DNA of 50,783 bases, the filler included, from Jimgerdemannia flammicorona (taxonomy: Eukaryota), in NCBI GenBank assembly GCA_003990765.1. It is 2 parts of 2 records of this genome, joined end to end, with 100 filler letters (N's around TTAATTAATTAA, not from the genome) between each part and the next. Parts side by side here need not be neighbours in the genome. Positions count along the whole stretch, not along the records: positions 25,445 to 50,783 come from RBNJ01000845.1; 1 more part is not named here. One strand, given 5' to 3'. Each line of letters begins with the position of its first letter. Position 1 is the stretch's first letter. The notes beneath the pieces were generated by a model. It did not search any database and had not been told where the DNA came from. It was given only the letters and a program-made list of their open reading frames with translations. The position numbers and the translations under genes are program-made. Positions 16,252 to 43,100 of the stretch are shown here, piece by piece.

Positions 16252-16505
16252 GAATAGATAATTAGTAGCTTGGCATTAAAATTCCATTGTGGAGTTTAAA
16301 CCTTGCTTGAGCCTATTACACGACACGATATAATTGTTACATTTTGTGAATATGATGGGCGCGATAAGGTTAGTTCCTCTCCACCATGCTTTAACGACGC
16401 GTATATACATTTTGAGACCCAAGCCACATTGCGCAGTCCCATATCATATACCGTCTTCCGCATCCTGTCAAGGACACGCCTCTTCACAACCCCACGCTAT
16501 GTGAG

Positions 16506-18993: not shown

Positions 18994-19032
<39 letters not shown>

Positions 19033-19924
19033 AAGGTGCGAGTACAATTGAAGCGACTCCTGACTCCGTCGAGAACAGGTACTGTGCATCATAATTTAAA
19101 CGAAAACGACTCTGCCATGCCGGATCCGATGTCGAAATGCAAACGCAATTAAACGGGTTCAGTATGAAACAAGAGCACGTATCGCGGCTTGGTCTCAATA
19201 GTACCATAAAAGAGAGTGGCTGTATACACCAACTTGGTGCTAGTGCGGCTGATTGAATCATAAATAAATAAAAATGTTAACCCAAACTTTACAGTTATGC
19301 ATTATTAATTGGAAACACTTCTCTTATTTAGCTGTCATCACAGTTGATATCTTTATTCCTAAAACCTTTTTTTTTTAATTAACTCAATTTTTTTACATCA
19401 TGCTAATTATTTGTTCGTTGTCACTGCCAAATTGCAGTTTTCGTCGTTATTTGAGAACGGGGAATTTGCAACGCCAAACATAGTTTAGCTGGGATTGGTT
19501 ACACCGAGCCAGATTCGGGGCGCCGTATGAGGAAAGGCTCTAAGCACAAGGTCACAGGGGTTGAAAGAGTGTGAGCCATTCCCGTAACTCATCTGTGTAG
19601 ACCTCGGCAGGCCATGCTTCTTGTGGGCGAACTTTGTTTGTTAATGATTATGTTACAGGAACCGAAAAACCGAGTCGCTGGAAAAAACGAGAACCGCAAC
19701 GTTGTAGGAAGCGAGTCGTTGGAATGTTTGGAATAGCTCGAAGAGGTCGAGTCAGCAGGAAAGCAAAATATTAATTATAATAAGCCCAAGTCACGGCATC
19801 CTCACATAAGCAGAACGAACATTAATGGATTCGAGAACACCTTTCCCATGACCAAAAGTGATTGCTCACGTAACGGAGCAAGGTAACGGACTGTTGTGTA
19901 CTGTATGGCGGCAAGGGTACTGGT

Positions 19925-19992
19925 AGAATGAATTCGTGCAGATACTAAATTTAACCATGCAGAATGAATTCGTGCAGATGCTAAATTTAACC
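19925..19992. repeat. 36-bp tandem duplication
   Basis: AGAATGAATTCGTGCAGATRCTAAATTTAACC occurs twice at a period of 36, with one mismatch. Confidence 0.9.
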
Positions 19993-22367
19993 GAAAACAC
20001 AATCAAACAAACCAGGTTCCAAATTAGGAATTGGACGTGAGTGATGTAAAATGTAAACAGATAATGCATTGGGGATTTATTGGCAAGCGAACCAGACCTT
20101 TTTTTTTTTTTCTCTGGACGCAGTGTGTCGTAGGCGGAAGCGGAAGAGTTTGTGGTAGTTTCTTGGCTTTAAGATATACGGAGCGATACTTGGGGGAGCG
20201 GGAAGGCATGCTGATATGTTTGACTGCTATTGATTGCCCGAAATTAATTTCAAGTACTTACTGGTCGGTCGCTTTCAGCGGTAGATAAATCGGTAGCATA
20301 CAATCTATTCTAGCATTTTATTTTATTTTTGATGTTTTGTTTATATTTATTCCTCCTCAGGGATAAGATCAGACAATGCCCATATTCGGATCTCTCTCTG
20401 ATCGACCATCGGACAGTGGAACATGTGACCTTCGTATTCTCCTCCGTCAATCCATTCTTTGCCACTTGGACAACGAACCTGATCGTCCCTAAAATCCTCC
20501 GACCACTTCGGTGGCGGGGGGATTTGGTTCGGGTGCTCATGGGATTGTAACTTAAAGGACCGACGTAGAAGGAGCTGCACTGCGGGCACATTGGCTGCAG
20601 GTGCACGGTGCGTTGGTGTCTGTTATACACTCATTGGCGGTCGCGAGGTAATTATATAGTAATTACATTTCTGACCATCGAGGCCGGGGACTGGGGTTTG
20701 GGTTGGAGGGTTTGATATCTGGCTCACTATGTCGATGGGAGCGGCTTGCGATGCGGGAAACCCCTAAGTAGGTAAAGAACATAAATCCCGACGCGGGCAG
20801 ATTAGCGCCTGATCTGTCACATAGTATTGATTCATAGATTTCTACGAACAACCAAATTGAAACCTGTTGCTCAAGTTAATACGTCTCGGGTTCTGCTGAC
20901 ATGGATGCATGTCGCCACAAAACAGGTTGTACTCCTCATTTACAGACGGTTTTGATTATCCCAACATGTCATCAGATTGCACCTGCCTACCCAAGATAGA
21001 GAAATGGACGCGTTTTCTATCCCTTATTCCCTCCACTAGTTCGTGCGAGACCCCCTATCATATCCGGGCTCCGACGCTCTTTTGTTTGAGAGGGTCAACC
21101 ACAATCCAAAGCTCCCGGCGTCAGAATATATCTAATATGCTATTTAATTTCCGAGAGTCAAATACATCTGACGCTACTTCGTTCCAGGCATAGGCCTCAA
21201 TTCTGTCTTTGTACGACACCGACCGACGCTCGGTCTCCACTTCCAATAACCCCCCCTTCTTTCTTCCCGAAATCTTTCAGCTATTACGTTATAATTAATT
21301 AGAATAAGTATGTACAGTTGTGTAGTCGTGCTAGGTTCATTGGCAAAAATTCCACGTTACTTAAACGAAGCTATGCCCATCGTAGATATAGCAAGCAAGA
21401 TCTTGTTCTTGTGATTCTTTGACCATATCGTCCTTAGGTCCGAAGAACATCTCCAGGATCTCAGACGTGACGTAATTGCACCATGCAAGGTCCAATCACC
21501 ACAACCGCGGGCAGTATGCCCCCCCCCAGGCTTGACTGTTGCTGGTCGAACGGCAAGGAAATCGGGGGTCCAAGGTCGTGGATCGTAGACCGAAAACACG
21601 CCACTTGATGACTTTGGTGCGGAAAGACCGAGATGGTGCACAAAATGGACCATTCTGCAGCTGTAGTCGGAGTGATGGGAGCGACCCATCACTATGTTGC
21701 AAGTGAATGTTGAAGGCGGCGAGAGAGGAGGCGGAAGGACTCGGTCAAAGCGTCGGTCTTGGTGTTTGGACGATAAGATGAGGAATAAAAAATCGGGTCT
21801 CTGATTCTGGGTAATTGCCACACGATGAACCGGCTTATAAGATGAACTCCGCTTATATAATCTACATTTACATATCGCCATCGTTGAATCGGCTAGTACG
21901 ATCTACATGCCGTCATCTCATTTTTTCAATTTAAAAATTCCATCAATACCTGTGAGCAATTTTTGCCATTCATCTCTGTTCAATATCTCCCAACCATGTC
22001 AGCGACTCAAAGTGATAAAGCTGCGAATTCCTCTCTCTCTAATGTTCCTGACGGGATCAGAGTTACACGTAATATACAAGAAGATGAAAAAGATCCAAAT
22101 ATTTGTTGCCAAGCGATGACAGTGAGCTGAACCGTCTGGATTTACAGCACTTCGTGGTACGATAAGTTTCTCTGGCCCTGGTGATAAAGTATAGAAGCCG
22201 TGTCTATAGTAAAACGGTCGCAATTGTGGTGGAATATTTTTACAGCAATAGTGCCCGACTGTCTGCAGTCATTAATTCTTTACTTTCCGTCTCTTATCTC
22301 ATTCTACTCTCTCGCGCATGGCTCTCATACAACATATCTCGTATAGTCATCTATGCATGATTCCAAT

Positions 22368-22438
22368 TTAGATGCGCAATGATTGTACCTGATCAATTAT
22401 TTGATTAGATGCGCAACATACCTGATCAATTGTTTGAT
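22368..22438. repeat. Imperfect tandem duplication (about 35 bp) upstream of the P450 gene
   Basis: TTAGATGCGCAA...TACCTGATCAATTRTTTGAT occurs twice. Confidence 0.8.
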
Positions 22439-22916
22439 ATAAATTTCCATTCACGAACCTTGGTCCGCAAATCTCAGGTTATGATTTTTGTCAACAAACC
22501 AGGGTAAAACGTGATGTTCAGTGCGGCGAATCTATAAACCACACCACGTGACTAAATAGTGTGGCTGCTGCCAAATCAAAATAGTCATGTGCTTGTCAAT
22601 GATTGGGTAAAATAATTATACATCACTAAAAATCATTGTGATACCTAATGATGACGTATTTCCATTTTAAGACGTAACATAACCGCCTGTCAAGTTGTAG
22701 TAAATCAATCAGAGGATCATTCTACAGAATTATATTTTTTTTCTAGTTTATGAGGATTATAGATTCGCCGCACTGTACTATTCCGATTGAAATAGGCAAA
22801 GGACATCGGTGACGATCCATACTCCGTGCCGCAAATCTTCTCACGTCCAAGCCACGAATCACGCCTTTTAGTATTGATTAATTCTGGGCAGTGCATCTTT
22901 AGCCGGTTGTCAGAAC

Positions 22917-24774
22917 ATGGATGCAACTGGGATTACAGCATCGATCGTCGCATTGCTATGCGGTGCCCTCATTTTCCGCGACATCAACCTTCGGCTAAGG
23001 TAACAAATTTTCGCGTCAACGTTTTGTTGCGAAACTCCCCCCCCCCCAAAAAAAAAGTAACTAGTTTCATGTGCGCAGGTGGAGAAACGTAAATCTCCCT
23101 GGTCCACCTCGCTACCCCCTGATTGGAAGCCTCATTGTCAACGCCAGGGATATCATGGATATGTTTAAGAACCAGTCCCGTTTTGGTACAGTATCGGCAT
23201 TCTTCCCGTTGAACAATCCCATCGTGCTGACGAGCGATCCCGAGGACTTCAAGAGGATATTTACTACGAATATTGCTCCCAAAGGTAGATAAATTTGTTT
23301 CGTTTTATTTATTACGGTACAGTTCTCCAACATGACGTTTTATACACACAGGGAGTACCGTCGAAAGTTTGGGCCAATACCTAGGTCCGAGCGGGATCGT
23401 CTTTTTGGACCACAACGGCCCGGAAATGACGCCATGGAAGACGCATCGTCAGGCTATTGACCAGGCTTTTCGAGTGTCTTCACTGCGAAGTTTCCAGCAC
23501 GCTATTCAAAAGCATGCGGAGGATTTCGTGCAGAGGCTCGAGAGTCAGGATGGTAAAGAAGTCGATATGGTTGTAGAGTTCAGAAGAATTGTTTTGAACA
23601 TTACGTCAGAACTAGTTGGTAAGCATCAAATCTGTTTGTTTTCTTGACAATAGTCGGTGGTGCGGTTTTACAAACCTCGCAGCTAAAATCTACCTTCTTA
23701 ACAAGGCGCTGGTGACGCTCCCGCCGAATTTCTTGCCGCCATGACCGACTTGATCTGGTCGCTCGATTCTCTCCTCATCCGTACACACCTGTCTATAGGC
23801 GGGATCTACTTAAAGTGGTTGAAGCGACGGTCCTTCAAGATTGTTGACAACTTCCTCAACGAAGCGATCCGTGCCAAGCAAGCCGAACTCGCACGACTTA
23901 CAGACGAAGAGCTCTTAGGCCGCCAATCCAACAACCTCCTCGAACTCCTCCTCCTCACCGGTCAATTCACGCCGAAGCAGATTCGCGACCACCTCGTTAT
24001 ATTCTATCTCGCGGGCCTCGACACCGCCGCCAGCCTTCTTCCATCTGCCCTTTTCCAGATTGTGCAGCACCCAGATGTGTGTCGTCGCGCCGTTGCCGAG
24101 CTCGGTTCTGTACGCAGCCCGCTCGCGTACGATGACCTCAAGAAACTGCGTTACACGACACATTGCGTGGAGGAGTCACTCAGAATGCGTGGGCCCATTA
24201 TCGTGACGGCGCGTGACTTGGATCGGGACTACGAGCTCGCTTGTGGACAGGTCGTACCGTCTGGGACGATGTTGTTGGCGCATTTGCATGCCGTGCATTT
24301 CTCAGAGGAGTGGTGGACTGAGCCGCAAAAGTATAATCCTAGTAGGTTCGATAAGGAGGAGAATGGAGGGGTTGTGGAACCAAAGCACCCATTCGCCTAT
24401 GTACCATTCGCTGCCGGACCTAGGATATGCATAGGTAAATAACTGTTCAATTTTTTGTGCGGAAGATCATCTCAAGAGTTTCTGGCCAACTAATTTCTCA
24501 AAATGTGACGAACATTGTAGGACGCAATCTCTTCTTCTCCGAAGCTCTAACGCTTTTGCACAAGACTCTGACACGTCTGTCATTTGAAATCATCGATCAT
24601 CCTGATAATGGCGTCGTGTTGGAAGGTCATGGGTATGCTACACCGTTTCATTGGCGCTGATTGTCCCCCAATGAAGATGATCTAACCTATCTGGCCCATA
24701 CTAAACGTTTTATTGACTTCGGCTACAGATTGAGCATCCCGAAGATGGTCAAATTTCGTGTCATGAAGCGCTAG
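22917..24774 (+). CDS. Cytochrome P450 monooxygenase (6 exons)
   Basis: N-terminal anchor MDATGITASIVALLCGALIF, PGPPRYPLIG hinge, I-helix AGLDT, K-helix EESLR, PSRF, and heme motif PFAAGPRICIG(R). The last exon LSIPKMVKFRVMKR* ends at 24774. Confidence 0.93.
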
Positions 24775-25064
24775 CACAACGAAGAGTAACAAATACCACA
24801 CCAATTCATTCGGCAACACCCCCGTACGGGAAACTTACAAAGATGTTCGGGTCTTTTTAAACGAATTGTATTTGGTTTGCGTCTATCATATTGATATATA
24901 ACAAAGCCTGTTTGGAGAAAATGAGCTTGGAGGGAAAGAGACGAGAGAGAGAGAAACTCGAGAGAAGTGTGTTGATGCGTTTGGCCACCGTCGCTCGCTC
25001 GCGTCATCGATCAAGTAAGCATAAAATGAACGTGCGATTTCCTTTCTGTCATAATCGACATCAC

Positions 25065-25284
25065 CTACTCCAAGCAAAACCGAGAGAAGCCAGTGTGGAG
25101 AAAATTGGATGCTCTACGTCCGAACGCAACCAGTCCACCAAATGGCACTTGCTGCTGCATGGTGTTCTTTCCGAGCTTGTGGCTGCCGTGGTCGGGAATG
25201 TCGACAATGTCGCAGTATTGTTCGCCATAAATCCTATTCTTCAATTCACTATAAATGTGGTTTGAATGTTTCGGAGTTGCCATT
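25065..25284 (-). CDS. Possible terminal exon of a gene truncated by the gap
   Basis: On the minus strand, a pyrimidine tract and CTAG acceptor precede a 72-codon open frame. No homology recognised. Confidence 0.2.
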
Positions 25285-25344
25285 CTAGCATCACGGGAAT
25301 TCCCGGGACAAAAATAGGAAGATAGTAAAAAAAAAAAAAAAAAA

Positions 25345-25444: not shown

Positions 25445-25515
<71 letters not shown>

Positions 25516-25517
<2 letters not shown>

Positions 25518-25761: not shown

Positions 25762-25974
25762 ATTGATATATTTATATCTATTATCTAAGTATATAATATA
25801 TATTTTACATTTTGTTTTATTCTTTATTATTACTTTAAACTTTTTGAATTTCTCCAAGATCTCACTTTTTACTATTAAAGAAGTATACATATACTTTATA
25901 TAATTATTAATAAATATAATAAAATATCTCTTCTCACTATAGGAAGTAGTATATATCAGACTATATATATCTAT

Positions 25975-26475
25975 TATAATATAGTGGATATATAACTAGA
26001 TAAGTATGTCAGATTTCTATATCTTGAAAACTTGATCTTCTTTAACTCTACAGAGTCCTTAGAATGTAGGAGTGGGTGAGTTCAAAGTGTATCTATCCAT
26101 AGACTTACTAGTTCTCTTACTTTCTCTTTACTTTGAACTATTTTAATCTGAGATTTTATTTACTCTAGATACTGGGAATATTTATACAAGTTTGCTAGCT
26201 ATGTATAAGGTAGCTAAGTTATGACTATGTTTTCTGTAAGTTATTTTTTATAAGTGTTACTTCTTGACATCTGTTAAATCTTTGATAATTATCAAAACTT
26301 TAACATCTGTAAAATCTTGACATTTGTGAAGAGTTTAACATTTATAAAAACTTTAATATTTGAGAAATATAGCTACTATTTGTAAGGTTATACTATATTT
26401 GGAAATCAGATTTAAATACTACAATCAAATGTCTTTTCTCTTGATTTATATTCCTAATTTAGATCAACCATCACA
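25975..26475 (-). repeat. 3' LTR of the outer gypsy (501 bp)
   Basis: Ends in CCATCACA (TGTGATGG on the minus strand), matches 38905-39334, and contains six 18-bp repeat units. Confidence 0.9.
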
Positions 26476-26516
26476 ACTTCCTTCTGAATAGGTGATTTAT
26501 CTCTGAAATATCCTAT

Positions 26517-26978
26517 TTACTTAAACTTTTAAGTTTTCATCAGTTGTATCTCCTTATACTGTATAATTTGTATCATTATATTCTTTTAGTAATATCTTTT
26601 AATATATTTAAAGTCTCCTGAAACTACTTCTCAGAAATGGGCTAGAGCTGGCTCATCATCTTTAAACAACTTATTAACTTACTTGATGACTATGATCTGA
26701 GTATTAGAGAGCTAGTACTCTCTAATCTAGTTTTCTTTTTCTATCTCTGACTATGAGTTTAGTAGCTATCTTAACTTAAAGTATTCTTGAAACTCAGTCT
26801 GATTCTGGTAGATCTTAAAATGTGAGATTTGTGACAAATATATCTGGATAATACTCTAGATACTATCAAAGGATTCTTCTATAATTAATGGCTCAGTAGT
26901 ATACTATTGTCTTTCTATGACTAATTATATAGTACTGATAATTCTGAGGGCTGTGGCAGTACTTTATTAATTAGTCAT
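26517..26978 (-). pseudogene. ORF3 of the outer gypsy (unknown protein, disrupted by stops)
   Basis: 462 nt, the same length as the inner ORF3. Reads LSQISHFKIYQ..EFQEYFKLR..KLFKDDEPAL..QIIQYK..KFK*. Confidence 0.8.
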
Positions 26979-28540
26979 AATACTTCTTGAGTCTATTTTA
27001 GTAAATAGTAGTAGAGATGATTATATCTGAGAGTTTTTATAGCCAAAAGGTAGTTTCTTTTATATCTTATATAAGGTAAGATCTTTTCTACTTAGGCTTC
27101 AGTTTTCCTAACTATGAAGCTTTTATTATATTCTAATATGTATATCAGGACTTTGTCTCCTATCTTAATAATCTCCAGAGGCTTGTAAACCTTTTCTGTA
27201 TTATTCTGCTATAGTGTCTGTACCTTAGTTATATAATTCTCAATCTTTTTTCTGATTTAGATTGTCTCTATATTTCTGTATCTATATATTTCTATATCAT
27301 ATCTCTATTTGATGATAAGATTCCTTGAGAACTTTCTTTTCTAAACAATATCTCTCAAGAGATGAAATAAGTACTTTGTGATTAGATATCCTAAAGAGTA
27401 GATAATACTATTAGCAGATAGTGATCTCAGTTTTTATAGTTATTATAAATCTTAGTAATGATATTCTTGAGAGTCTTATTGATTCTTTCTACTTGTCTAT
27501 TTCTCTGAAAGTGATAGGCTGTAGTCTAAATATACTGGATCTTATACTTTTTGTAGAGAATCTCAAAGAACTAGTTCACAAATTCTGTTTCTCTGTCTGT
27601 AGTTACTTGTGCTGGAGTCTTGAATTGGCAGATAATTTCTTTATAGAAGAAATCAGCAATTAACTGTGTATTGACTTCTTTGAGGAGTCCTGCCTCTATC
27701 CATTTTGTAAAAAGGTCTATGATGATAATAATGTATTAGTTTCCAGTTAAAGTCAAGGATAAAGAACCAATTATATCTATTATAATATATATAAGAATAT
27801 TGGTTCTATATATACTGATCTGAGGTTTTGATTTTATTGGTCTTATTTCTATTTTTGATATTTGTTACAGATCTTGACAAATCATCTGATAACTTTCTTC
27901 ATTCCTAGTTATCACATTGTTCTTCTTGCTTTTTTATAGGTATTTATTCCTTCTAGATGGCCAAGTTTATATACTGATTTCATTGTTTTCTCCTTCTTAT
28001 ATTTGGATATAACTAGTAGCTTTTCTTTCTTTAGTATTTCTCCATTGGTCTCAAATTATTTTCATATTCAATTGATAAATATTTGTTTCCATTCTTTCAG
28101 ATATTGAGGTATCTTACACTATCTCAAATAAGTAATAATTCTGTAGTAGAGTTTCTTATTCATAATTGATTTGCTGGTTGGGGGTTTTTCAGAATATCTA
28201 TGAGAGAATATCTACATTGGTATTGATTCTTCCAGAGTAATATATGATAGTTATATTATAAGCTTACAACTTCATAATCTATCTAGTATAGATTCCTTTG
28301 GGTTATCCAGTGGTCAGTAGCTAGATAAGGGCTGAGTGATTTGTCTGAATGATAAAGTATGTATCTCTCTGCAAGATAGTAGTGGAACTTCTCTATGGCC
28401 CAGATAACTACAAGATATTCAAACTTGTAGAATTTATACTCTTTTTCAACTTCTTAGGTTCCTTGGCTGAGATATGTGATAATATATTCTACTTTATCTT
28501 TCTTCTGGACCAGGACTGCTCCTAGTTTTTATACATATAC

Positions 28541-29006
28541 TGTGATGGTACAGCCAAATTTGGAAGAAGGAAATAGGGAATAGACACTTGATCGCACCCA
28601 GTCTCAAAGTAGTATAGCCTTATAGTTAGCAGTCCTTGATTTCAACATTGTCTAAATTCTTAGATATTGTCTAAATTTTTAGACATTATCCAAATCAAAT
28701 GTCCCGATTTAGTATAGCATTTAGACATTCTCTAAATATTTCAACAAAGTCCAAATGGCTCATCTATTACTTAGCCACCCTCTCATAGCTAGCAAACTTG
28801 TATAAATAACCCAGTATCTTAGAGTGAATAAACCTCAGATCGAAAGTGTTAGAAAAAGAACAAGTATACTGATAAAAGGACCTTTGGGATTATCTCTTTA
28901 AACACATTTGGCCTCAAGGAACTACTGACTCTGGGAGTCAAGAAGACAAGAATTCAAGATAAAGAAATCCAATGTACTTGCCTATCTTAGCATCTACTAC
29001 ATTACA
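28541..29006 (+). repeat. 5' LTR of the inner gypsy
   Basis: TGTGATGG...ATTACA, with TATAAATA and AATAAA inside. About 94% identical to the 3' LTR by eye. Confidence 0.95.
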
Positions 29007-29105
29007 ACTTAGTGCCCATTGGCTGGTGATTCAAGATGAATCTCTCACTTTCAAGCTGAACAACGAACAACTACAACAAGAACCCATACAACACAATCAG
29101 ACAAA

Positions 29106-32100
29106 ATGGACATAAGACTACCCATATTCCATAGATACACCTCTGATGAATCATTTATCACCTTCATCGACAATTTCAAGCAGTATGCTGCCATAAGGAC
29201 CTTAAGTGCAGTACAACAAGCAGCTCTACTCCCTGTAAGCCTCAGAGGCCTAGCAAGAACTATATTCACTATAGCTAATATTGCGGGAAATGATGATCCA
29301 GCAAGACTCCTAGCTTTCAAGACCTGGCTCTGAGCAACCTATTATACAGATGAAATCAAACAAGTACTCAAGGATCAACTGAATACTATCTGCCAAGGAA
29401 TGTCTGAAGACCCAAACACATTCTATACAAGAATCCGACATCAAATAGTCCTTGCTGACTATCCCGATGCAGTTCAAGACCAAGTGGCCGAGAATATCTT
29501 CATGAAAGGCATTCATCAAGAAATCACTTTAGCTATCTGATCTACCCCAATGGCTCTGGACCTGGGCCAGAAGGTTACCTATGCCCAAAGATACTAGACT
29601 GCCAGACACCCTCAAGGCCATACAATAGAAAGAATAACAGGAGTAAAAATTGAACAAGTACCAAGGGTCACCAATATAGTCCCAGCTACCATAGTCAACC
29701 GAAATACTCAATGACAACCACAAGAACAGAGAAGAGTTGACCCAATGGAGGAACTGGCCAAACAGTTCGTAGAAATGACTGCACACCTCAGTAATATAGT
29801 CAAAGAGTTCAAGAAGAAGCCAGTACAGAAGTTTGTCACTACAAATGCAAGACGATCAATAACATGCTACAATTGTGGAGAAGAAGGCCACTATGCCTCT
29901 GAATGTATGACAGAAACCAAGTGAAAGACCAATCTAAGCAATGCAATCAGAAACTGTGAGCAGGCAAATACTATCACCTTTGAGGAGATTGGAGAATCTG
30001 AGGAAGAGAGGAAAGAATGGGAAGCTTACCCTGCCACCTCAAGCAAGAAGGATGTCCAATCCAGTCCCTACAAAAGATCTCTAGGCAGACCTCCTAAGAA
30101 GGCCCAGATACAAACAAGACAACCAGAAACAGTCATCGAAAAAGAGAACCAGCAGAGTGAAGCTGATCAAGATATAGAGCTGGAACAAGATGCTGAACTT
30201 GAATGAGCGGTAGAAGATATCTTCAGAAACACCACCCTATCAAGTGAAGGGAAGAAGGAGCAGAAATTGCGTAAGAGCAAGACCTTCAAATATGATATCT
30301 TCAAGGACCTCAAGGACCAAAAAGTCAATGCAATCTTTGGCCAACTAGCAGAAATCCCAACCTTCAGACAACAAATGAGGACAGGAATCTCAGATATTGG
30401 CAAAGACCAAGGTTGGAAAATAATTGAAGCCAATAATGCACAAGAAGATTCAGATGAAAAGAGTGAAGATAATCGGAAAACATCAGTCTATGCTATCTGC
30501 CAGATCGAGGATCGAGTCTTTGAAGCCATTATTGATATGGAAGCAGGGGGATATCTCATTACCAAGAAAGCAGTAGACCACCTAGGCTGGGAGATAGAAG
30601 AAGCCACCAAACTGGTATTCATTACAGCTGATGGAACATGAGCAACACCCTTGGGAAAGATCCGAGATGTACCAATCAAGTTCAGAGAGGCCACTATCCC
30701 TGTGGATGTCATCGTCATCAATGCAACCAACTATGATATCCTCATCAGCAATCAATGGCTTCATAAAGCCAAGGCAATAATTGACCTCAGTGCACAGAAG
30801 ATATAGATCATCTACTGGGGAAAGAAGATCAGAATTATCATCAATATCCACAAAGGAGTCTACCCCGAGATGGAGGAAGATCAAGAAGAAGAAGCCTATA
30901 TGGTTACTACAAAGAAAGGAAAAGGCAAGCAATTGACAGAGGAAGAATGGTATATAAGAATTACAGATGGATATGCCCCACTAGGAAGGTGCCCCTATGG
31001 TGAAAGAATATACTGTGTCCAGCACTTGGATTGCTACTACTCTTGTATCATTGAGGTGAAGAAGATCACCAATAAGCCAAAGAAGAACTAGGAGGAACTA
31101 GAAGATGGACCACCAGAGTTATTGGATGATAGTGATGATGAGGATAAAGATATCACAGTCAAGATATAAAGGATTCACCCTGATACAGTCACACCACAGT
31201 ACAAGTTAGAGAATACAGCTAGAATGGACCTATCTACTACTACATACACAATACTCAAACCACAGACTACTACTATTCTAGGAACAGGAATTGAAGTAAC
31301 CATCCCACCAAACCATGTTGGAATCCTCAAGACAAGGAATAGCCTAGTGAAAAGCAAAATATCTATAGAAGGAGGAGTTATTGATTCAAATTATACTGGA
31401 GAAATCCTTCTCCTTGCCAGGAACCACAACCCAATAATCCCATTTGAAGTAAGGAAGAAGGATCGGCTGGCACAAATGCTCATCCTACTTGTCCTTAATC
31501 CAAGAATCAAGGAGGTTGCAAACATCAGACAAACTCAGTGAGGGAGAGCTGGATTCAGCTCTATAGGAAGAGGAGTCCTCGCAGTAACTAAGATCACCAA
31601 ATTGGAGTACAAGATGGAGGAAAGCCAAGACAAACACACCTATACAATCAGAAGAAACTTCCCCCTCAGAGAAGAATTGTAGAGCCTCTTGCATATATTC
31701 GAGGATGTACTGGCCATGGATTTCAAGGACATCAAGACCAAGAAACCCTTGTATTATTATAATATCAATACTGAAGATACAAAGCCAATCTATCAGAAGG
31801 CCCGCCCCATTTCACCAGCATACAGAGAATAGCTCAATACAGAGATCAAGGAAATGGAGGAATCTGGTATCATTGAAGAAGCCATCAGCCCTTGGTTCTC
31901 TCCCATCATCCTTGCATCAAAGAAAGAAAGCCAACCAGGAGAATTTACACCAAGACTCTGCACAGACTATAGAAGACTCAACGAGGTCACAGAGAAGGAC
32001 AGACAACCATTGCCAAATATTGGTGATATTCTTATCATACTGGGGAATAAATCATGATTCTACATCACTCTGGATCTGTTCTCAGGATTCTACCAAATTG

Positions 32101-33089
32101 GCCTTACACCTGAAGCCAGCAAAATATCAGCCTTCATCACCCCTGATGGAATCTATGTCTATCTCTGCATGTCCTTTGAAATGTGCAATGCACCAGCAAG
32201 CTTCCAGTGAATGATAAACAGCATCTTCAGAGATGTTATGGAAAAATAGATGATGGTATATGTAGATGATGTGATTATCTTCAGCCAAACAGCCAAAGAG
32301 CACTTGGAACATATTGAGGAAATCCTCAGAAGACTTCACAAATATGGTCTCTACATCAAGCCCAAGAAATGTAAGTTCAGAGAAGAAGAGATTGCATACC
32401 TTAGACACATTATCAACTGTGAAGGAACATACACAGACCCCACAAAGATCAAAGCAGTAGTAGTATACTCAGTACCTACCAGCATCATGGAAGCCCGAGC
32501 CTTCATGAGACTTGCATCCTACTACAGAAGATTTATTAGAAGATTCTCCCACATTGCCAGCCCTATCTATAATCTGTTCAGAAAAGAGGTTAAGTTTCAG
32601 TGAACTCAGCAGCAGCAACTAGCCTTCAATGAGCTCAAGACCAGATTGACCCAGGCCCCAATCTTGAGAAGACCTGACTGGACTCAGGAGTTTATTCTGC
32701 AAACAGATGCCAGTGTAATAGGAATTGGAGCTGTCCTTGCACAAAAGAAAAATGGTGCCAAATATATGGTAGCCTATCTCAGCCAAGGTACTTGTGGGGC
32801 AGAGCAGTCCTATGAGTCTTATAAGCTGGAATGCCTTGCAGTCATCTGGGCTGTAGAGAAGTTCCACTACTACCTAGCTAGAAGACACTTCACCATTCAG
32901 ACAGACTACTCAGCACTCACCTGATTGCTCACCACCAGCGAGCCCAAAGGAATCTATGCTCGATGGATTATGAAGCTGCAAGCATACGATGCCACAATCA
33001 CCCACTACCCTAGAAGAACCAACACCAATGCTGACGCCCTCTCATAGATACCCCAAAGGACCCCACTCTCACAAAATCACCATGAATAA
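29106..33089 (+). pseudogene. Gypsy ORF1: gag-protease-dUTPase-RT-RNase H in one frame, many premature stops, no net frameshift
   Basis: Zn knuckle CYNCGEEGHYASEC; PR AIIDMEAG (decayed DTGAG); RT PRLCTDYRRLN, LDLFSGFYQI, YVDDVII; RH LQTDAS, ECLAVIWA, TDYSAL, NADALS. ORF-track pieces at 29106, 30267, 30870, 31224, 31854, 32250 and 32646 are all in the same frame. Confidence 0.93.
31161..31568 (+). pseudogene. dut: Trimeric dUTPase domain inside pol, between PR and RT
   Basis: All five motifs are recognisable though decayed: ARMDL, TRNSL, EGGVIDSNYTGEI, DRLAQML and (R)GRAGFSSIG. Confidence 0.92.
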
Positions 33090-34275
33090 GGAGCTGTACT
33101 ACAGAATCATCAGCTACCTGGGGCAGCAAAAGATGCCCCTGCATCTGGAAGAATGGACAAAAACAATTATTAATCGGACATGGAAACAATTTGAAACTGA
33201 TGGAGAAATACTCAAGAAAGGACAACAATTAGTCATCCCCAAGCACCAGAAGAATCAAGTGATGAAAGAAGTACATAAACAGAGTCATATAGGAGGAACA
33301 AATACATATGACAAAGCAAGAAGAACCATGTGGTGGCCCAGAATGGAAGAAGATATCAAACAATTTGTCAGAACCTGTGACAAATGCCAGAAACAGAAAT
33401 AAGACCAACAGGATCAAGCCTCTGGATCAGCAGACATTGAACCAATACCATTTGCCCACATTGTAATGGATGTAATTGGCCCTCTACCCCTAATATTGAC
33501 TGGCAACTGATATGTCATTATAATAGTGAATCTATTTACAAAATGGGTAGAGGCCAGACCCCTCAAGGAAGCCAATACACAGTCAATTGCTGATTTCTTT
33601 CATAGAGAAATCATCTGCCAATTCAAGACCCCAAAGCAAGTTACTACAGACAGAGGAACAGAATTCGTCAACCAGTTCCATGAGGTTCTTTACAAGAAGT
33701 ATAAGATCTAACACATCAAGACCACAGCCTATCACCCACAAGAAAATGGACAAGCAGAAAGAACCAACAAGACTCTCAAGAACATCATTGCTAAGATCTG
33801 TAATGAATATGGAAACTGGGACCACTATCTACCAATAGCATTATCCACTCTGTGGGATATATGATCACAAAGCACCCATTTTATACTATGAGAAATGCTA
33901 TTCAGTGAAGAAGGTTCTGGTGGAAGTTTGTCAGCAGGTAATGATGCAATCTGGAAGCATGTGGACACAGAGATATGGAGATTACATCAAATTAGAAAAA
34001 AGGCAGAGGATTATATAATCAAGGCACAGGCACTATAACAGAATAATGCAGAAAAAACCCACAAGCCCCTGGAGATTATCAAGATAGGAGATGAAGTCCT
34101 AGTATATTGGAATATGGTAGAAGCTTCTTGGTCACGAAAACTGGAGCCCAAGTGGGAAGGACCTTATCTGGTACAAGATATAAAAGGGACTACTTTCCAG
34201 CTATGAAAGTCCTCAGGCACAATAATTCTCACCACCATTCATTGAAACTGACTCAAGAAGTACCATGGCCAATAA
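33082..34275 (+). pseudogene. Gypsy ORF2: integrase (HHCC, DDE, GPY; no chromodomain), in the +1 frame relative to ORF1
   Basis: MNKELYY...VHKQSHIG...CDKCQ...MDVIGP...TDRGTEF...ENGQAERTN...KLEPKWEGPY...KKYHGQ*. Confidence 0.9.
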
Positions 34276-34726
34276 CCGAAGCACTGCGATGGCACTCAAG
34301 ATCACTAGTGCTGCCCAAAGAGCCATTGAAAGACAATGGCACACCACCGAGCCTCCGACCATAGAGGCATACTATGAGGATATTTAGAGTATTGTGCAGA
34401 CTCATCTCTCTCAGATCTCACACTTTAGAGCCTATCAATATTGGGCAGAATTCCAAGAGTACTTCAAGCTTAGACAGGTACTCAATCAGGATCCAGCAAA
34501 GACCAAAGAGGACTGGATTGCTGAGTGTCAACTCTCCCACTCACAGATCACTATTGTCAAAAGGATCCACAAGTTATTTCAAGAAGATGAACCAGCAATA
34601 GACCACCTGAGAGGAGTAATCCCCACTGACTTCGAGAAAGTAAGAAGACATTATTGGGAAACAGTCATGCAGCAAATTGTACAGTATAAGACCATACAGA
34701 CAGTTGAAGCCTGGGAGTTTAAATAG
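34265..34726 (+). pseudogene. Gypsy ORF3: 153-codon protein of unknown function (one internal TAG)
   Basis: The ACCATGG start overlaps the end of the integrase. Reads MANNRSTAMALKITSAAQRAIERQWH...EFQEYFKLRQ...EAWEFK*. Conserved in the outer copy. Confidence 0.8.
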
Positions 34727-34763
34727 ATGCCTCAGGGATAAGACCATCTATTCAGGAGGAAGT

Positions 34764-35229
34764 TATAATGGTACAGCCAAATTTGGAAGAAGGAAATAGG
34801 GAATAGACACTTGATCACACCCAGTCCCAAAGTAGTATAGCCTTATAGTTAGCAGTCCTCGATTTTAACATTGTCTAAATTCTTAGACATTGTCTAAATT
34901 TTTAGACATTATCCAAATTGAACGTCCCAATTTAGTATAGCATTTAGACATTGTCCAAATATTTCGACAAAGTCCAAATAGCTCATCTATTACTTAGCCA
35001 CTCTCTCATAGCTAGTAAACTTGTATAAATAACCCAGTATCTTGGAGTAAATAAACCTCAGATCGAAAGTGTCAGAAAAAGAACAAGTATACTGATAAAA
35101 GAACCTTCAGGATTACCTCTTTAAACACATTTGGCCTCAAGGAACTACTGACTCTGGGAGTCAAGAAGACAAGAATTCAAGATAAAGAAATCTGATGTAC
35201 TTGCCCATCTTAGCGTCCACTATATTACA
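34764..35229 (+). repeat. 3' LTR of the inner gypsy
   Basis: TATAATGG (from TGTGATGG)...ATTACA, 466 bp. Confidence 0.95.
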
Positions 35230-38200
35230 ATACTTATATATATCTACAGGATAAATTTCTGAGTCCAATCAGATCTTCTGAGGATAGGTGCTTAGGTCAG
35301 CCTAATCTTGAGTTTATTAAATACTTTTTATTATCTGCTAGTCCAATGAAACTTGATATCTTTCTTATTGAGTTTGTAGATTAGATCTATAATATTAGAG
35401 AATTCTCTAATAAATTTATAGTAGTATATATGAAGCAAGTCTCATAAAGGCTTGAGCTTTAGTAATAATGGTGAGTCTTAGATATATTACTACTACTTAA
35501 ATCTTAAATAGGTCTATATATATTCTATCTCAGTTAATAATGTGACTAAGGTAGAAGATCTCAATTTCTGCAAACTTACACTTCTTGGGCTTGATGTAAA
35601 GACCATACTTCCTTAGCTTCTCTATCATCTACTGGATGTACTGCAGATATTCTTCTGATATCTTACTGTAGATGATAACTTTATTCATATAAACTATTAT
35701 CTATCTTCTTATATTATAGCAGAAGATTTTATTTATCATTTACTAGAAGCTTGCTGATATATTATACATTCTGAATGATATTTGTAGATAGATATAAGTT
35801 TCATCTGAAGTAATGAAGGCTGACTTCTCACTTGCTACTTCTGTGAGACCAATTTGATTAAATCCTAAATATAAGGTACTATAGTACTATACTTCATCTC
35901 CTAAGATTATAAGAATATTACTGATGAGAGACAGTGGTTGGCAATTCTTCTTTATAGCTAGATTGAGCTTCTTATAATTAGTGCAGAGTCTTGGGGTAAA
36001 TTCTTTTAGTTTGTTTCCTTTTTTTAGAGCTAATATAACTAGTGAAGCCCAAGGACTACTGGCTTCTTTAATGATACTAACTTCTTCTATCTGCTTGATT
36101 TCTTCTCTGAGCCATTTGTAATAGACTAACAGGATTAGTCTTGCTTTTTGATAAATTGGTTCAGTGTCTCCTGTATCTATATCATAATTGTAATATAGAG
36201 TCTTTTTCTTGATATTCTTGAAGTCTATGGCTAGGATATCTTTGAATTCATAGAGTATCTTCTTGAGTTCTTTCTTGAGCAGAAATTTATCTCTAATGGT
36301 ATAGCTATACTGTTTGTAGTTTTCTCCTTGTAATCTAGTTCAGTGATCTTGGTACTAGTAAATACTCCTCTTTCTATATATAGATCTGAATTCTTTCTTT
36401 TCTCTTTCTGTTTCCTCCAACTTCTTGACTTCTATAATCTTTGGCTGAAGAACTGAGAAGATCAATATCTGTATCAATTAGTCTTTCTTCTTATTTGGAA
36501 ATAGAATCATAAGGTTGTAGTTTCTAGCAATAAGTACTATTTCTTCAATATAATCTAAATTGATAACTCCTCCTTTAATAGTAATCTCATTCTTGGTCAG
36601 ACTACTTCTTATCTTGAGGATCCTGACATAGTCCTTTAGAATGGTCATTTCCAGACTAGTTACAAGCAGAGTGGTTATCTGGGACTCTAGTATAGTTTTC
36701 TCTACTGTGGCAATATCTATTCTAGCTATATTCTCTAACTTGTATTCTGATAGAACTGTATCAGAGTGGATTTTCTAAATCTTGATCTTGATTTCTTCTT
36801 TATTGTCACTATTCTCTAGGAGGGCTGATGGTTTGTCATCCTCTTCCTACTCCTTTTCTTGCCTTGTCTGTTTCTTAAGAGTCTTCTGTCTTCTTTTATA
36901 GTAGATTTTCTTAATTCTGCTGATATATTATAGTATATATCTTTCAATAATCCTTTTGTCTCATTCTTCTTTATAGATCTATCTGACTTTCTTCTTCTTT
37001 TTCTAAGTAGTCACCATATAGACTTCTTCTTGCTCACTTTCTTCTTCCTTTATTTCAGACAGTACTTCTTTGTTAACATTGATGGAAATTTGTATCTTCT
37101 GACCTCAGTAAATGATCTGCATCTTCTGAGAATTAAGGTCAGTTATTACTCTGGCTTTATGAAGCCACTGGTTGCCAATGAGGATATTATAGTTAGTAGT
37201 ATTGGTTATGATCATATCTACTAGAATAGTTACTCCTCCAAACTTAATGGAAATATCTTGGATCTTTTCTAGAGATATAGCCTTGTGCTATCTGCTATAA
37301 TGAATATCAATTTGGTTACTTCTTCAACCTCTCAACCTAAGTAGTCTACTACTTTCTTACTGAGGAAATATTCTTCTGCTCCAGTGTCAATGATGGCCTC
37401 AAAGATTCTATCTTCAATTTGATAGGTTATATAGACATATTTCTTGCAATTATCTTCACTCTCTTCTTTAGAGTCTTCTTGAATATTGTTGGCCTCAGTT
37501 ATCTTTCATTCTTGTTTCTTGGTTATTTCTACAAGTCCATATCTCATTTGCTGTCTAAATATGAATATTTCTACTAGCTGGCCAAAGATTGTATTGATCT
37601 TTTGTTAACTGAGATCCTTGAAGATATCATACTTAAATGTCTTGGTTTTGTATAGCTTCTTTTCCTTTTCTCCTTCACTGGCTGAGATAGTTTCTCAGAT
37701 GATATCTTGGACAGTCTGTTCCAGCTCTATATCTTGATATATTTCTTTATCTTGGCTTTCTATAGCAGTTTCTATCTGTTTTTCTACAAAGTTCTTCTTG
37801 GATCTCTCTGGTGATCTCTTATAGAGTTCCTTTCAGACATCTTTCTTAGGAGTCTATATAGGGTTGGTCTCTCATTCTTCTTTATCTAATTCTTTGATTT
37901 CTTCAAAGGTAATAGTGTTGGCCTATTCCTTATTCTTTATAGCATTACTTGGCTGAGCTTTGTACTTGGTCTCACTTATATATTTATATAAGTAGTGATC
38001 TTCTTCTCTATAAGTATAGTAGATATCTCTCTTCTTGTCTGAGGTAACAGCAAACTTCTGAACTAGGTGATGGTCTCTTTCTCTAATTTTCTTTATCATA
38101 TCTCCAAGATGGGTAGTCATTTTGGCAAACTTCTTAACAAGTTCCTCCATAGAGTTACTGTTTCTCTATTGCTCTATAGCTCTTAGCTAAGGTGGGTTTC

Positions 38201-38904
38201 AATTGATCACTATGGTAGAAATCACACTAGTTGCCTTGAGTACCTCAATTCTGACTCTAGTGACTCTTTCTATTATATGATCTTATAGATATCTGGCTAT
38301 CTAGTATTGCTGGATATAGGTAACCTTTTATACTAGATCCAGAACTACTAGTAATAAGTAGATGGTCATGACTATCTGAGTGAACTCCTTTTATAAAGAT
38401 TGCTTTAACCACTTGATCTTGAATAGTATTAATATAATTGATAAGAATTATCTGATATTATATTCTGGTATAGAATGTATTTAGATTTTTACTTATTTCT
38501 TGATATATTATATTGAGCTGATTCTTCAGGGCTTGCTTGATCTCATCTATATAGTAAGTAGTTTAGAGCCAGGTCTTCTATGCTACTAGTATGGCATTAT
38601 TATTATTTTCTATATAGGTTATAGCTATGAATACTACTCTTACTGATTCTTGGAGACTAAAGGATATGAGAGCTACTTGCTGTCTTGCTATCAGGGTCCT
38701 TATAGCAGCATACTGCTTGAAATTATCAATAAAGATAATAATTGATTCATCTGAAGTATATTTATAGAATACTAGTGGTCTCATATCTATCTTGTCTAGA
38801 TGTCTTGGTTCAATTTGTATAGTTGTTCAAGTAGTAACAGTTATTTGTTGTTCAGCTTAAAAGTGAGAGATTTATCTTGAATCATCAGCCAATGAGCACT
38901 AAGT

Positions 38905-39334
38905 TATAATGTATTGAATATATGTATAACTAAATAAGTATGTCAGATTTCTGTATCTTAAAAACTTGATCTTCTTTAACTCTGCAAAGTCTTTAGGATA
39001 TAGGGATGAGTGAGTTCAAAGTATATCTATCTGTAGACTTACTAGTTTTCTTGTTTTCTCTTTACTTTAAACTATTTTAATCTGAGGTTTTATTCACTCT
39101 ATATACTGAGAATATTTATATAAGTTTGCTAGCTATAAGATAGCTAAGTTATGACTATATTTCCTGTGAGTTATTTTTCCCAAGTATTAATTCTTAACAT
39201 TTGTGAATAGTTTAACATTTGTGAAATATGACTACTATTTATAAGACTATACTATATTTGAGAATCAGATTCAGATACTGTGATTAAATATCTATTCTCT
39301 TAATTTATATTTCTGATTTAAATCAACTATCATA
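38905..39334 (-). repeat. 5' LTR of the outer gypsy (430 bp)
   Basis: Matches 25975-26475 but has only two repeat units. Adjacent to a PBS/leader nearly identical to that of the inner element. Confidence 0.88.
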
Positions 39335-40045
39335 CTATATAAATTAAATCAAGTATACTAGATATAAGTTTTATTCATTTTTGAAATAGTCATTAGAATG
39401 CTTTATTTGCTATATAGTCTTCATAGAAGTTATTATTGAGATATATATATATTTATCAGTAATCTACTTACTAAACTATTTCTGATCATTATTTTTAAAC
39501 TTGATTTGTCTATATATCTTAAGTATTAATATCATATATTAGATATATCAGATGTAGTTGTTACATATATAGAGACTTTCATATTATTTGATATACTATT
39601 GATCATATATATAAAGATTGTCTTGTTTTGTATTATAATCACCTTATCATACTTCAAACTATATACTATTACTATCATTGAGTGTATATATTTCTTTATT
39701 ACTATAGGCCAACATTTTGCCAATTGAGAAGAGGTTCTTTTCTATCTTCAGAGTATATAGTATGTATATTCTAAAAAAATACTGATAGGCTCTATAATAT
39801 TCCTATAAAGATATATGATAATATTATTATCTAACTTAATTAGTACTAGAACTTATATATGGAGAACTATTCTTAGTAGATTATTATATATTATATAGTA
39901 TCTGAATCTATAAGCTATATATATTATTATTATTAGCTATATTGGTATATACTTTGTTATTAACATTATTATCTTTTGCTAGCTCAAAAGTATATAGCTT
40001 AGATATAGATATAGGTGTCTTCTCTATATACTCAGTATATATATT

Positions 40046-40046
<1 letters not shown>

Positions 40047-40110
<64 letters not shown>

Positions 40111-43100
40111 TAGTCTCTTGAACTCCTTTATTACCAAAACACATCTATATTATATTAGAATATAATATCCAACCTATCCCACTATCCAATCTTCCTAGGA
40201 GAGATTCTACCAACTTTTACTTATTTGAAAACCACTTAACCCTCCAATACCTCCATTTGACCCCTGCTCTACATATACACCTTTAATAAGCTAGTAGTAG
40301 TAGCCACTCTGTGGCCTCCAGCCCACTCACTAGCCAGTCAAGAGATCCTCCATCAGTCCATTCCATCTTGATGACTGCTTTATAATACTCAACCACTGTC
40401 TATTCTCAAACACAAAGAGCTAATGCTCAGCCAACCCCATCCAAATCACTAAGACTCAGTTATATATAAGCTACTCATTCTCTACTCTCTCTATAAGCTA
40501 CTTCTTCAAATCCTCCCAATGGCCCCTCACCTCATTTCTCCTCCTACTGATCTCCAGATACTTCTCTACAGCAATCTAGAAATCACCAAGCACCTCATAC
40601 TCTCCTAGTCAATATTCAGATAACTGTATAAAAACCCCTTCCTGTCCTACATTAAGGCAATCCTCATACTCAAACTTACCCCTCTCAACCAAATGACCAG
40701 AGTAGAAGTTTAGCATGACATTTCTCCTTAGTATATACCACCACTCAGAACTTAGAGAGAAACCACTGCTTGACCTCAGTACTTTAGGTCCAAACTCTAG
40801 TTCAGTTCCACTCCTCACCTATACTAACACTCTGCCAACCCACTGGCTACATATCCAACCCCATCACCCTCTGACACTCAATCTCATCTCTAATATTAAA
40901 TTCAATAAGGAGAGAGTTACTAAGAAGGAGCCTATTCTAGTACTATATTGCTAGCCTCCAATATATTGCTCTACTACTATAGCCCAATATGATACACCCC
41001 TACAGCAATCCCCTACTAGAATCCTTTAAAGTACAACCTCCCACTATTCTGCAGGTCTACTAGTAATAGAAGATCCCTTATAGAGCCCCTCAGGGAAACC
41101 CTCAGCTCTTATACCTTCTGCATTAAAGGAACCCAGCTATCCTCTCTCAGTTTCAGCTATCAGGCCCTCACACAATGAAGCTTTCTCAGGAAATCCACTA
41201 GACTAAGACCTCTACAGTTCACAGATAGTGAAAGAGTACTTCAGTCAATTTGACTTCAGTGCTCTGCCTAGATCTAGTCCTTAGCCAATCTCAGCAGCTA
41301 CCTTACTACTTAAGAAGAGAAATTTAGATAGTAGACCAAGTACCATATCTTCAGTAGCCAATAGATATTCAGAATTACCACTCTGCTAGTTAGAGAGATG
41401 TAGCACACTCCCTAGCTCTGAAGTACCTCACCCTAACTTGAGACTCTGCTCTCTCACCAGACTCTGGTCAGAACAGACTTATATACTGATAGATAGATAC
41501 CAAGATACTGCACAGCTTTGCCAGCTGGAACAATTGTTCCAATGATATTCCCTCCCATCATCCTATTCCCAAGCACCATAATCTCACACTTATATCAATT
41601 CAACCTTATATCAGAACATGCCTCATATCACTCTACTGTCTCCTTCAACATCTCTACATCAGCTATAGAGTGAAGTCTCACTACCATATTATCAGCAAAG
41701 GTACCCACCTTCTAAATGACTCTGAAAACTAACAACTCTACTACTCTATGCCATATCCTATCTATAAGGAGTTCCAAAGAGAGAGTATAGAGAATGAGTG
41801 ACAATAGATCCCCTTAAGGGACCTCTCTTCCTAGGATGAATATTGCATCCTTATGGCTATTGTATAAGATAGCAACCCTACTATCTTTTAGTAAGCTGAT
41901 TATAGAGATCTAGAATTACCATGAGACTCTAATTCTGTTAAATATTTTACCTAGCTAGATATGTCTCACCCAATCATAGGTCTTTTCTTAATTCAAAAAA
42001 ACTAGTCTCTCATCCAGACTACTTATCCTAGCTTCTTCAATGATACCATATACTCATGCTGTACCATTATAAATAAGGTGGCCCCCAATAAAGCTATACT
42101 GCTCCTCACCTAGTATCAATTGGACTACATGCTATAGTCATACTACTATCATCTTGGTAATCAACTTTCTGTCTATGTCCAGGAGCATAATCAGCCTCTA
42201 GTTCCTCCAATCCTCTCTACTACTCTTATTCTTATAGAGTAATATCACTAAGCCAAGATCCTGCTTGCCAACCCATCTCTCTGTCAAGAGAACATAATCA
42301 CACAGTACTACTATCTCTCCAAGAACTCAAGAAACTCTCATCATTCACTTTCAGAAATCCCAAGAGAGCCCATCCTCACCTGAGGCTGTATCTGACTTTG
42401 TAGTAGAAATGACCTACTGAATCTCCTCCTCCTGAACAGACCAGGACAGTCATTCAATACTATCTACTGGAGGCAGATTCTAGTCCTCCAGAGTAAGCTC
42501 AATGTCCTCAGCACCCATACCCCTAGCCTTCTCACTCTACAAATTGCTCTATTATTCCTTGAGAGAGCCAAGAATCTGCTAGGTACTATGAATGATCACA
42601 CTCTCAGAATCAATCATGCTATCTCACCTCTACTTTATCTGTCTGGCCCAAAGCAGTCAAGAAAGATACCTAGAGGGTCTCTCTCTCTCCTCCAATCTCT
42701 ACCATTATAACTAAGCAACCATTCTCTTCACACATATCTCCTTCTTCTCTCTCAAGATAGTTTATAACTCTATTACCTCTAGTTTGATATGTACCAACCT
42801 CCAATCATCAACCCCTTCCAAGCTCAGCAATTCAGCCCAAGCTCTCTGCAGCTGAGTAAGTCTTCTGGAGGCCCAATGCACCCTCTCTCTCTTCTGCCTA
42901 CCTACCATCTGACCAGCCTCCTCTCAGTAAACCCTGGTATTCTCCTTCAATCACCTCCAAAAAGTATCTATAGGAAGGCCCTCACTGATTCAACTGCTAA
43001 TCTTCCACTGAATATCCATAACCCATCTGTCTCACAGCTCTCTTTCCACTAGTAAAGAGGAGTTGAGATACCAATGTCCAGGCCCATCTCCACTCCTTCT

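Follow-up and report, generated by a model that had tools for sequence, protein, structure and literature searches.

Why should the two long terminal repeats (LTRs) of a single retrotransposon insertion differ almost exclusively by transitions, and mostly at sites other than CpG? The question is raised by a Ty3/gypsy element at 28541-35229 in a stretch of 50,783 nucleotides of Jimgerdemannia flammicorona (assembly GCA_003990765.1), the whole of which is called the window here. This element is inserted in an older, related one, and the two are referred to as the inner and the outer element. Comparison of the repeats in the window discloses a C:G to T:A process that acts after insertion, is confined to repeats, affects both strands alike and is ruled by the 3' neighbour of the cytosine. 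The order of contexts is CpG > CpA ≥ CpC >> CpT, and retroelements of three or more kinds follow it.

Changes in the inner element

The inner element is composed of the following parts:
28541-35229, + strand: inner Ty3/gypsy element
28541..29006, + strand: 5' LTR (TG...CA), 466 bp
29103..33044, + strand: gag (zf-CCHC), protease, dUTPase, reverse transcriptase (RT) and RNase H, sharing a single frame that holds 18 stops
33040..34762, + strand: integrase region (Integrase_H2C2, rve), in the +1 frame, stops present
34764..35229, + strand: 3' LTR, 466 bp
28537..28540 and 35230-35233, no strand assigned: target-site duplication ATAC, 4 bp

All features of a genuine Ty3/gypsy LTR retrotransposon are present, namely TG...CA LTRs, a target duplication and the order gag, protease, RT, RNase H, integrase. 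Both LTRs of an insertion derive from a single template and hence are identical when the element inserts. Because the element has TG...CA ends, the ATAC duplication and a purine tract directly before the 3' LTR, this holds for the inner pair as well. A preliminary description of this DNA had noted that the first open reading frame (ORF) carries many stops and no net frameshift. Indeed, the frame at 29103-33044 is continuous apart from its stops (11 TGA, 6 TAG, 1 TAA), and the only frameshift lies downstream, where integrase continues in the +1 frame from ~33040. The dUTPase domain (PF00692, E = 9e-19) resides between protease and RT of the polyprotein, at 31170-31540 (+).

Ungapped comparison of the LTRs over their 466 bp gave exactly what had been counted by eye, 30 differences with 29 transitions, one transversion (C/G at 28730) and no indels. 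If sites with C or G in one copy or both are taken as the denominator, 12 of 20 CpG sites differ, 13 of 53 CpA sites (CpA/TpG against TpA) and 4 of 34 CpC sites, while none of the 69 CpT sites does (CpA versus CpT, Fisher p = 8e-6). The earlier tally of about 12, 13 and 4 differences in CpG, CpA/TpG and CpC context, with reciprocal CA/TG pairs among the first (three of the 12), was thus reproduced. The near-complete sparing of CpT is a feature absent from it. Seventeen of the 29 transitions fall outside CpG, and they make up all but one of the 18 differences there (p = 0.007 for an expected ratio of 2:1). The T/A state is found in the 5' LTR at 15 of the transitions and in the 3' LTR at 14. 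Transition excess, as claimed before, is evident from the pair itself; its direction from C:G to T:A is not, since an LTR pair cannot polarise changes, and it is set only by comparison with an outgroup.

Near-length homologues of the gypsy polyprotein, with a best identity of 42%, are too distant for polarising changes, and resolved only two of the 18 stops, with R at 32208 and W at 32601. Seeking shorter relatives, we found P0321, a JGI record of 279 aa with 89% identity to RT-RNase H of the inner element, which can be compared over 265 aligned residues (polyprotein residues 1050-1314). Differences were observed at 29 residues, 26 of which are explained by one unambiguous base change and three by ambiguous or multiple changes. 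Going from P0321 to the window copy, 24 of the 26 are C:G to T:A (15 G>A, 9 C>T); the remaining two are one A>G and one C>A. At sites where a change alters the residue (nonsynonymous), the rates are 8/19 for CpG, 12/85 for CpA, 4/66 for CpC and 0/74 for CpT (CpA+CpC versus CpT, p = 0.002), with 16 of the 24 changes outside CpG. Taken together with the LTRs, no change was detected at 143 CpT sites of the inner element.

Ancestral codons of the CpA-class changes are CAT, CAC, GCA, ATG, GTG and GAT, and the changes include CAT/CAC to TAT/TAC, GCA to GTA and ATG to ATA. CpA or TpG was therefore already in place, and an origin of these changes as second hits at former CpGs, a possibility that the preliminary description had raised against its own proposal, is excluded. 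The density of nonsynonymous changes (24 in 795 internal bases) is near that of each LTR (~15 in 466), indicating that the whole inner element was mutated, beyond the part that is duplicated in cis.

The context rule in older elements

Two further elements in the window follow the same rule, the outer gypsy element and a long interspersed nuclear element (LINE):
25974..28540, - strand: outer gypsy, older and related, 3' part; GC 0.25-0.33, no CpG
25974..26516, - strand: 3' LTR of the outer element
35230..39339, - strand: outer gypsy, 5' part
38904..39339, - strand: 5' LTR of the outer element
40047..46199, - strand: LINE (non-LTR retrotransposon) with RVT_1, riddled with stops

The outer element, on the minus strand, was split by insertion of the inner one. 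Its LTR pair differs in 432 aligned columns by 55 transitions and 10 transversions, with changes at 4 of 4 CpG, 27 of 46 CpA, 12 of 18 CpC and 12 of 64 CpT sites (p = 2e-6). In the alignment between the two elements, C or G of the inner is opposed to T or A of the outer at 518 (C>T) and 505 (G>A) positions, compared with 168 and 244 in reverse, accompanied by 783 transversions. Forward rates, from inner to outer, are 0.57 for CpG, 0.43 for CpA, 0.41 for CpC and 0.29 for CpT, and those in the reverse direction range between 0.15 and 0.22. The outer element was also considered as an outgroup and rejected, being itself too mutated; it served for rates only.

The inner-outer alignment revealed no effect of the 5' neighbour (ACA 0.42, CCA 0.43, GCA 0.52, TCA 0.41), nor was there a preference for CHG (CAG 0.38 versus CAT 0.56; CTG 0.29 versus CTA 0.34). 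The strands are balanced in each of its 400-bp bins. Strand clustering, which the preliminary description had proposed to look for, is lacking in both LTR pairs: no run confined to one strand or one copy was found in either, and C>T and G>A are interleaved. Several of the same codons were turned into stops independently in the inner and the outer element (e.g. at 29331, 29595, 32055, 32208 and 32247, with pairs such as TGA/TAA and TAG/TAG), which fits a strongly targeted process.

The LINE, with a poly(A) tail seen as 63 T at 40047-40109, was polarised by P0171, P0172 and P0177, close fragments of 52-60% identity from a library-wide HMMER search. Changes were recorded at 29 of 94 CpA, 28 of 96 CpC, 3 of 5 CpG and 1 of 80 CpT sites (p = 3e-9), with per-site rates alike on the two strands (0.28-0.37).

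The GC skew of this copy, +0.45 in sense, suggested strand-specific C>T hypermutation of the sense strand as a candidate, which was rejected because its relatives share the make-up and because the per-site rates are 0.28 and 0.37. The close fragments are likewise G-rich and C-poor, and comparison with six homologues gave 113 G>A against 38 C>T, roughly in proportion to the G:C content. The sense strand of the family (40110-46199, -) comprises 11.3% C and 28.7% G and has no CpG; its surviving C is found in CpT at twice the expected rate, and a Gly/Val/Trp-rich, Pro-poor make-up recurs in close fragments of the family. The active LINE lineage seems to have accumulated a loss of C on one strand, with transcription-linked asymmetry or RNA editing as possible causes.

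Such C-poverty of the sense strand, together with the restriction to retroelements and the presence of a dUTPase in the gypsy element, could speak for a single-strand deaminase of the AID/APOBEC type, or for editing or reverse-transcriptase error during retrotransposition. Enzymes of the AID/APOBEC type read the 5' base and leave strand-coordinated clusters, neither of which was observed. Moreover, both strands are mutated in an interleaved manner, and the LTR differences post-date integration, as both LTRs stem from one template. We accordingly regard this explanation as highly improbable.

Four data sets were pooled: the inner LTR pair, the inner RT-RNase H versus P0321, the outer LTR pair and the LINE. 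The changed fractions are 27/48 for CpG (0.56), 81/278 for CpA (0.29), 48/214 for CpC (0.22) and 13/287 for CpT (0.05). CpA and CpC sites changed 5 to 6 times as often as CpT (p = 4e-16 for CpA+CpC versus CpT), and in the older elements CpC is mutated about as heavily as CpA. Damage is graded with age, the older of the nested elements being without any CpG, and GC declines with element age from 0.42 to 0.21-0.33. In old relics, surviving cytosines are in CpT/ApG (observed/expected ratio, o/e, 1.5-2.0), with CpA, CpC and GpG depleted and no CpG left.

Gene-side DNA and copies in soil

The left half of the window serves as a control for the repeats:
1..25300, no strand assigned: gene-rich control region, CpG o/e ~1, mutation signature absent
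25345-25388 and 25401-25444: N gaps

This half is gene-dense, with GC of about 0.5, and everything to the right of the N gaps is transposon DNA according to self-comparison and Pfam scans. CpG o/e is 0.97-1.24 in each 2-kb bin of gene-side DNA and 0.00-0.33 in transposon DNA, in agreement with the previous remark that genes left of the gap are CpG-rich. ORF-free gene-side DNA (4668 bases in 19 segments) has o/e of 1.03 for CpG, 1.10 for CpA, 1.02 for CpC, 0.88 for CpT and 0.82 for TpA. Because these dinucleotides are normal, the mutation pressure is confined to repeats, and a pressure from CpA to TpA, which had been suggested as a point to be checked in non-repeat DNA, is not visible there.

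These values also bear on neutral mutation combined with decay of methylated CpG, in which the non-CpG transitions would be background or second hits at old CpGs. CpG is indeed the most mutable context in the pooled data, and fixed differences from soil copies of the family, described below, are mostly transitions and do not spare CpT. Such an explanation leaves unaccounted for the excess of CpA and CpC over CpT changes, the unchanged CpT sites of the inner element, ancestral codons that hold CpA and not CpG, normal CpA, CpC and TpA in ORF-free gene-side DNA, and the fall of GC with element age. We attach scarcely any probability to it.

Among the genes of the left half are one with a DRMBL domain, a Myb with three repeats, a TPR/Sel1/MYND protein and a cytochrome P450. 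The ORF of the TPR/Sel1/MYND protein (11524-14394, + strand, 956 codons) matches, with 100% identity across 78% of its length, an NCBI protein of Jimgerdemannia flammicorona, and the next three matches, of 55-73% identity, are all paralogues from that species. Because of this match, the host is an early-diverging fungus of the Endogonales (Mucoromycota), as the preliminary description had made a condition of its proposal, and not an ascomycete with ordinary repeat-induced point mutation (RIP), which was the other possibility that had been set against its proposal. The protein belongs to an expanded family, with at least three paralogues in J. flammicorona, and the expansion is mirrored in its Glomeromycotina matches. 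As characterized in passages of PMC10386755, the fungus is ectomycorrhizal, a member of the Endogonales within Mucoromycotina, with a genome of ~240 Mb and more than 77% repeats.

Copies of the inner family were examined in an unrelated soil metagenome run (X1, 0.05 share of words), by aligning contigs to 28541-34763. There are 1617 contigs on the element, 76 of them at least 99% identical to the window, 221 at 95-99%, 573 at 90-95% and 747 below 90%. The soil sample therefore contains either this fungus or a close relative that carries the family. The contigs vary at 1242 places, and 87% of the variation is transitions (C>T 365, G>A 274, T>C 241, A>G 203; transversions 159). Contexts are available for the 40 of these places where all contigs differ from the window, 34 of them transitions. 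We interpret the 40 as fixed differences between subfamilies or strains.

Contig abundance in a high-copy family, in a scaffolded window with two N gaps, also calls for consideration of an assembly artefact, in which the copies would be mosaics of family members and the LTR pair would not come from one insertion. Matching target duplications and an intact architecture were found, and 76 independent contigs of the soil run match the stretch at 99% or more. A mosaic would shift the age estimate and not the spectrum, which appears also when changes are polarised by proteins, in the LINE and with P0321. An artefact is thus very unlikely to be the cause.

The remaining features to the right of the gaps are the following:
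39.3-40.0 kb and 46.2-48.2 kb: AT-rich relics
48300..50783, + strand: Ty1/copia element, truncated where the window ends; CpG o/e 0.33

In addition, a run of 71 A stands immediately right of the N gap (25445-25754), followed within the same segment by a fragment of ~220 bp from a third gypsy copy, which resembles 35688-35903 and, reversed, 32081-32280. A 57-bp tandem repeat of ~2.5 copies is located inside the AT-rich relic, at 47467-47650.

Mechanism and comparison with known systems

The analysis supports, as a pair, the two readings offered by the preliminary description, an undescribed repeat-directed mutagenesis or heavy non-CpG methylation. What we describe is repeat-directed C-to-T mutagenesis with its own context rule, in a lineage without a described case, and we infer that a methyltransferase mechanism underlies it. 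Gradual deamination of densely methylated repeats by DIM-2-like methyltransferases is the explanation that we favour, by a modest degree over an even chance. Repeats in heterochromatin would be methylated at cytosine-5, at CpG and non-CpG sites, by DIM-2-like enzymes of the DNMT1 family, and the methylated (or enzyme-bound) cytosine would deaminate to thymine. The changes would accumulate gradually, so that damage would grow with insertion age, and the flank preference of the methyltransferase would set the context rule. The last step is suggested by the dependence on the 3' base, a typical trait of such enzymes as well as of RIP.

Candidate enzymes are on record. Passages of PMC9963178 assign RID-1 exclusively to Pezizomycotina and report DIM-2-like homologues in Endogonales and Glomeromycota. 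Its Dataset S1 has three DIM2-class proteins for J. flammicorona AD002, and no Jimgerdemannia row appears in the stretch of the DNMT1 block that lists Endogone. Another classification, as cited in a passage of PMC8298701, places RID in arbuscular fungi, with loss in sister Mucoromycota. According to parts of PMC8016269, Dim2 of Zymoseptoria tritici is responsible for C>T changes that arise at mitosis in methylated repeats.

Several observations weigh against gradual deamination by such enzymes. Non-CpG 5-methylcytosine in these repeats is an assumption. Neurospora DIM-2 prefers CpT, as stated in a section of the review PMC13297926, contrary to the sparing of CpT in the window, and Z. tritici Dim2 mutates CpA and not CpG (passages of PMC8016269). 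Because of these two preferences, an enzyme specificity peculiar to the Endogonales lineage must be assumed. Sparing of CpT is not seen at the 40 places in the soil contigs: where the window has T/A, six are CpA, five CpT and three CpC, and where it has C/G, ten are CpT, seven CpA, two CpC and one CpG. Furthermore, collapsed copies could make the LTR pair a mosaic, and the mutation evidence is drawn from one window with three to four elements.

A bolder reading assumes an active, enzyme-driven defence in Endogonales that evolved independently of RID, through one or more expanded DIM-2-like paralogues deaminating C followed by anything but T. We put it forward only tentatively, as an idea that is rather less probable than its opposite. 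If true, it would have no precedent in Mucoromycota as a mutagenic defence against transposons, and surveys based on indices and k-mers would have missed it, as CpG decay refills CpA/TpG and CpC is unscored.

Related to this is a RIP-like defence in which duplicates, recognised by homology, would be deaminated in particular nuclei (e.g. premeiotic) by a DIM-2 paralogue in many light rounds. Transitions dominate, as RIP demands (29 of 30 LTR differences; 25 of 26 polarised changes, 24 of them C:G to T:A), the effect is limited to repeats, both LTRs are affected equally (15 and 14), and the same codons became stops in both gypsy elements. The species is listed with three DIM2-class proteins, and a passage of bioRxiv 10.1101/115501 describes that Neurospora DIM-2 is able to mediate RIP via the heterochromatin pathway. 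On the other hand, the >77% of repeats given for the species in PMC10386755 would be odd under efficient RIP, and RID is reported only in Pezizomycotina in the cited portion of PMC9963178. The family is, moreover, abundant in near-identical copies (76 soil contigs at 99% or more, 221 at 95-99%). RIP acts before meiosis, and its single events typically leave single-strand runs; these are absent from both LTR pairs, where C>T and G>A are interleaved. The order of contexts is likewise unlike that of RIP, and the composite RIP index has low values in the repeats (26000-50000), from -1.07 to +0.31. For interleaved strands, age grading and the survival of many young copies, gradual deamination is preferred over this homology-triggered process, which we hold to be unlikely on balance.

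With such index values, index-based screens would call most of this DNA not RIPped. The index largely misses the process because decay of CpG adds to CpA/TpG and CpC losses go unscored, and if the pattern is general, standard RIP indices would be blind to processes of this kind. In that case, non-CpG methylation, or the action of a new mutator, could be read from sequence in a mycorrhizal lineage that cannot be cultured, and DIM-2-like paralogues would be testable candidates. Ages of transposons derived from LTR divergence are affected as well, as nearly all divergence here stems from the C-to-T process.

Mutagenic transposon defence is usually seen as a trait of Dikarya, chiefly of ascomycetes, and here a member of Mucoromycotina bears a clean signature. 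A kingdom-wide screen from 2025 describes repeat-enriched mutation signatures as unique to ascomycetes (passages of PMC12543289), and the consulted text of a 2021 paper, PMC8647823, reports that RIP signatures went undetected in Mucoromycotina. A cautious, index-based suggestion of RIP in the entomophthoralean Zoophthora is contained in a part of PMC11105155. We found no report of the pattern in Endogonales in the literature searched, which did not extend to the genome paper and the supplements of the 2025 screen; these could bear on novelty.

The context spectrum matches none of the described processes. With methylated-CpG decay, as in basidiomycetes, Rhizophagus and animals, it shares the loss of CpG in old repeats and normal CpG in genes. 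It differs in that the excess is not restricted to CpG, about two thirds of the changes in Jimgerdemannia repeats being outside it. A TpCpG rule, which Horns et al. reportedly described for some basidiomycetes in 2012, is not seen here (TCG 0.58, ACG 0.46, CCG 0.63, GCG 0.60, on small numbers). Decay at CHG and CHH sites of plants likewise makes non-CpG cytosines of transposons mutable, whereas CAG and CTG are not favoured in the window.

In RIP, the full order of contexts is CpA >> CpT > CpG > CpC. RIP as known from Neurospora crassa and other Pezizomycotina has in common with the Jimgerdemannia pattern that changes are nearly exclusively C:G to T:A and confined to repeats, that the 3' neighbour decides, that frames acquire stops and that AT-rich relics are left. 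While RIP favours CpA, as given in passages of PMC12543289, CpA is not the dominant target in Jimgerdemannia repeats, where the pooled rate of CpG (0.56) exceeds that of CpA (0.29) and the order is CpG > CpA ≥ CpC >> CpT. Further differences are the lack of strand runs, a RIP index near or below zero, a genome full of young copies, and the absence of the RIP enzyme RID outside Pezizomycotina that is reported in the cited part of PMC9963178. The mutagenesis dependent on Dim2 in Z. tritici, in which C>T changes pile up in methylated repeats (sections of PMC8016269), resembles the Jimgerdemannia pattern in that C>T changes gather in repeats, and DIM2-class genes are listed for J. flammicorona (Dataset S1 of PMC9963178). 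The absence of bursts in the Jimgerdemannia repeats fits such a process. In Z. tritici, more than 98% of C>T is at CpA and CpG is spared, according to the same sections of PMC8016269, whereas in Jimgerdemannia CpG is the most mutable context (27/48) and CpC is mutated too (48/214). In its function, the process may nevertheless resemble the Dim2-dependent mutagenesis of Zymoseptoria more closely than classical, RID-dependent RIP.

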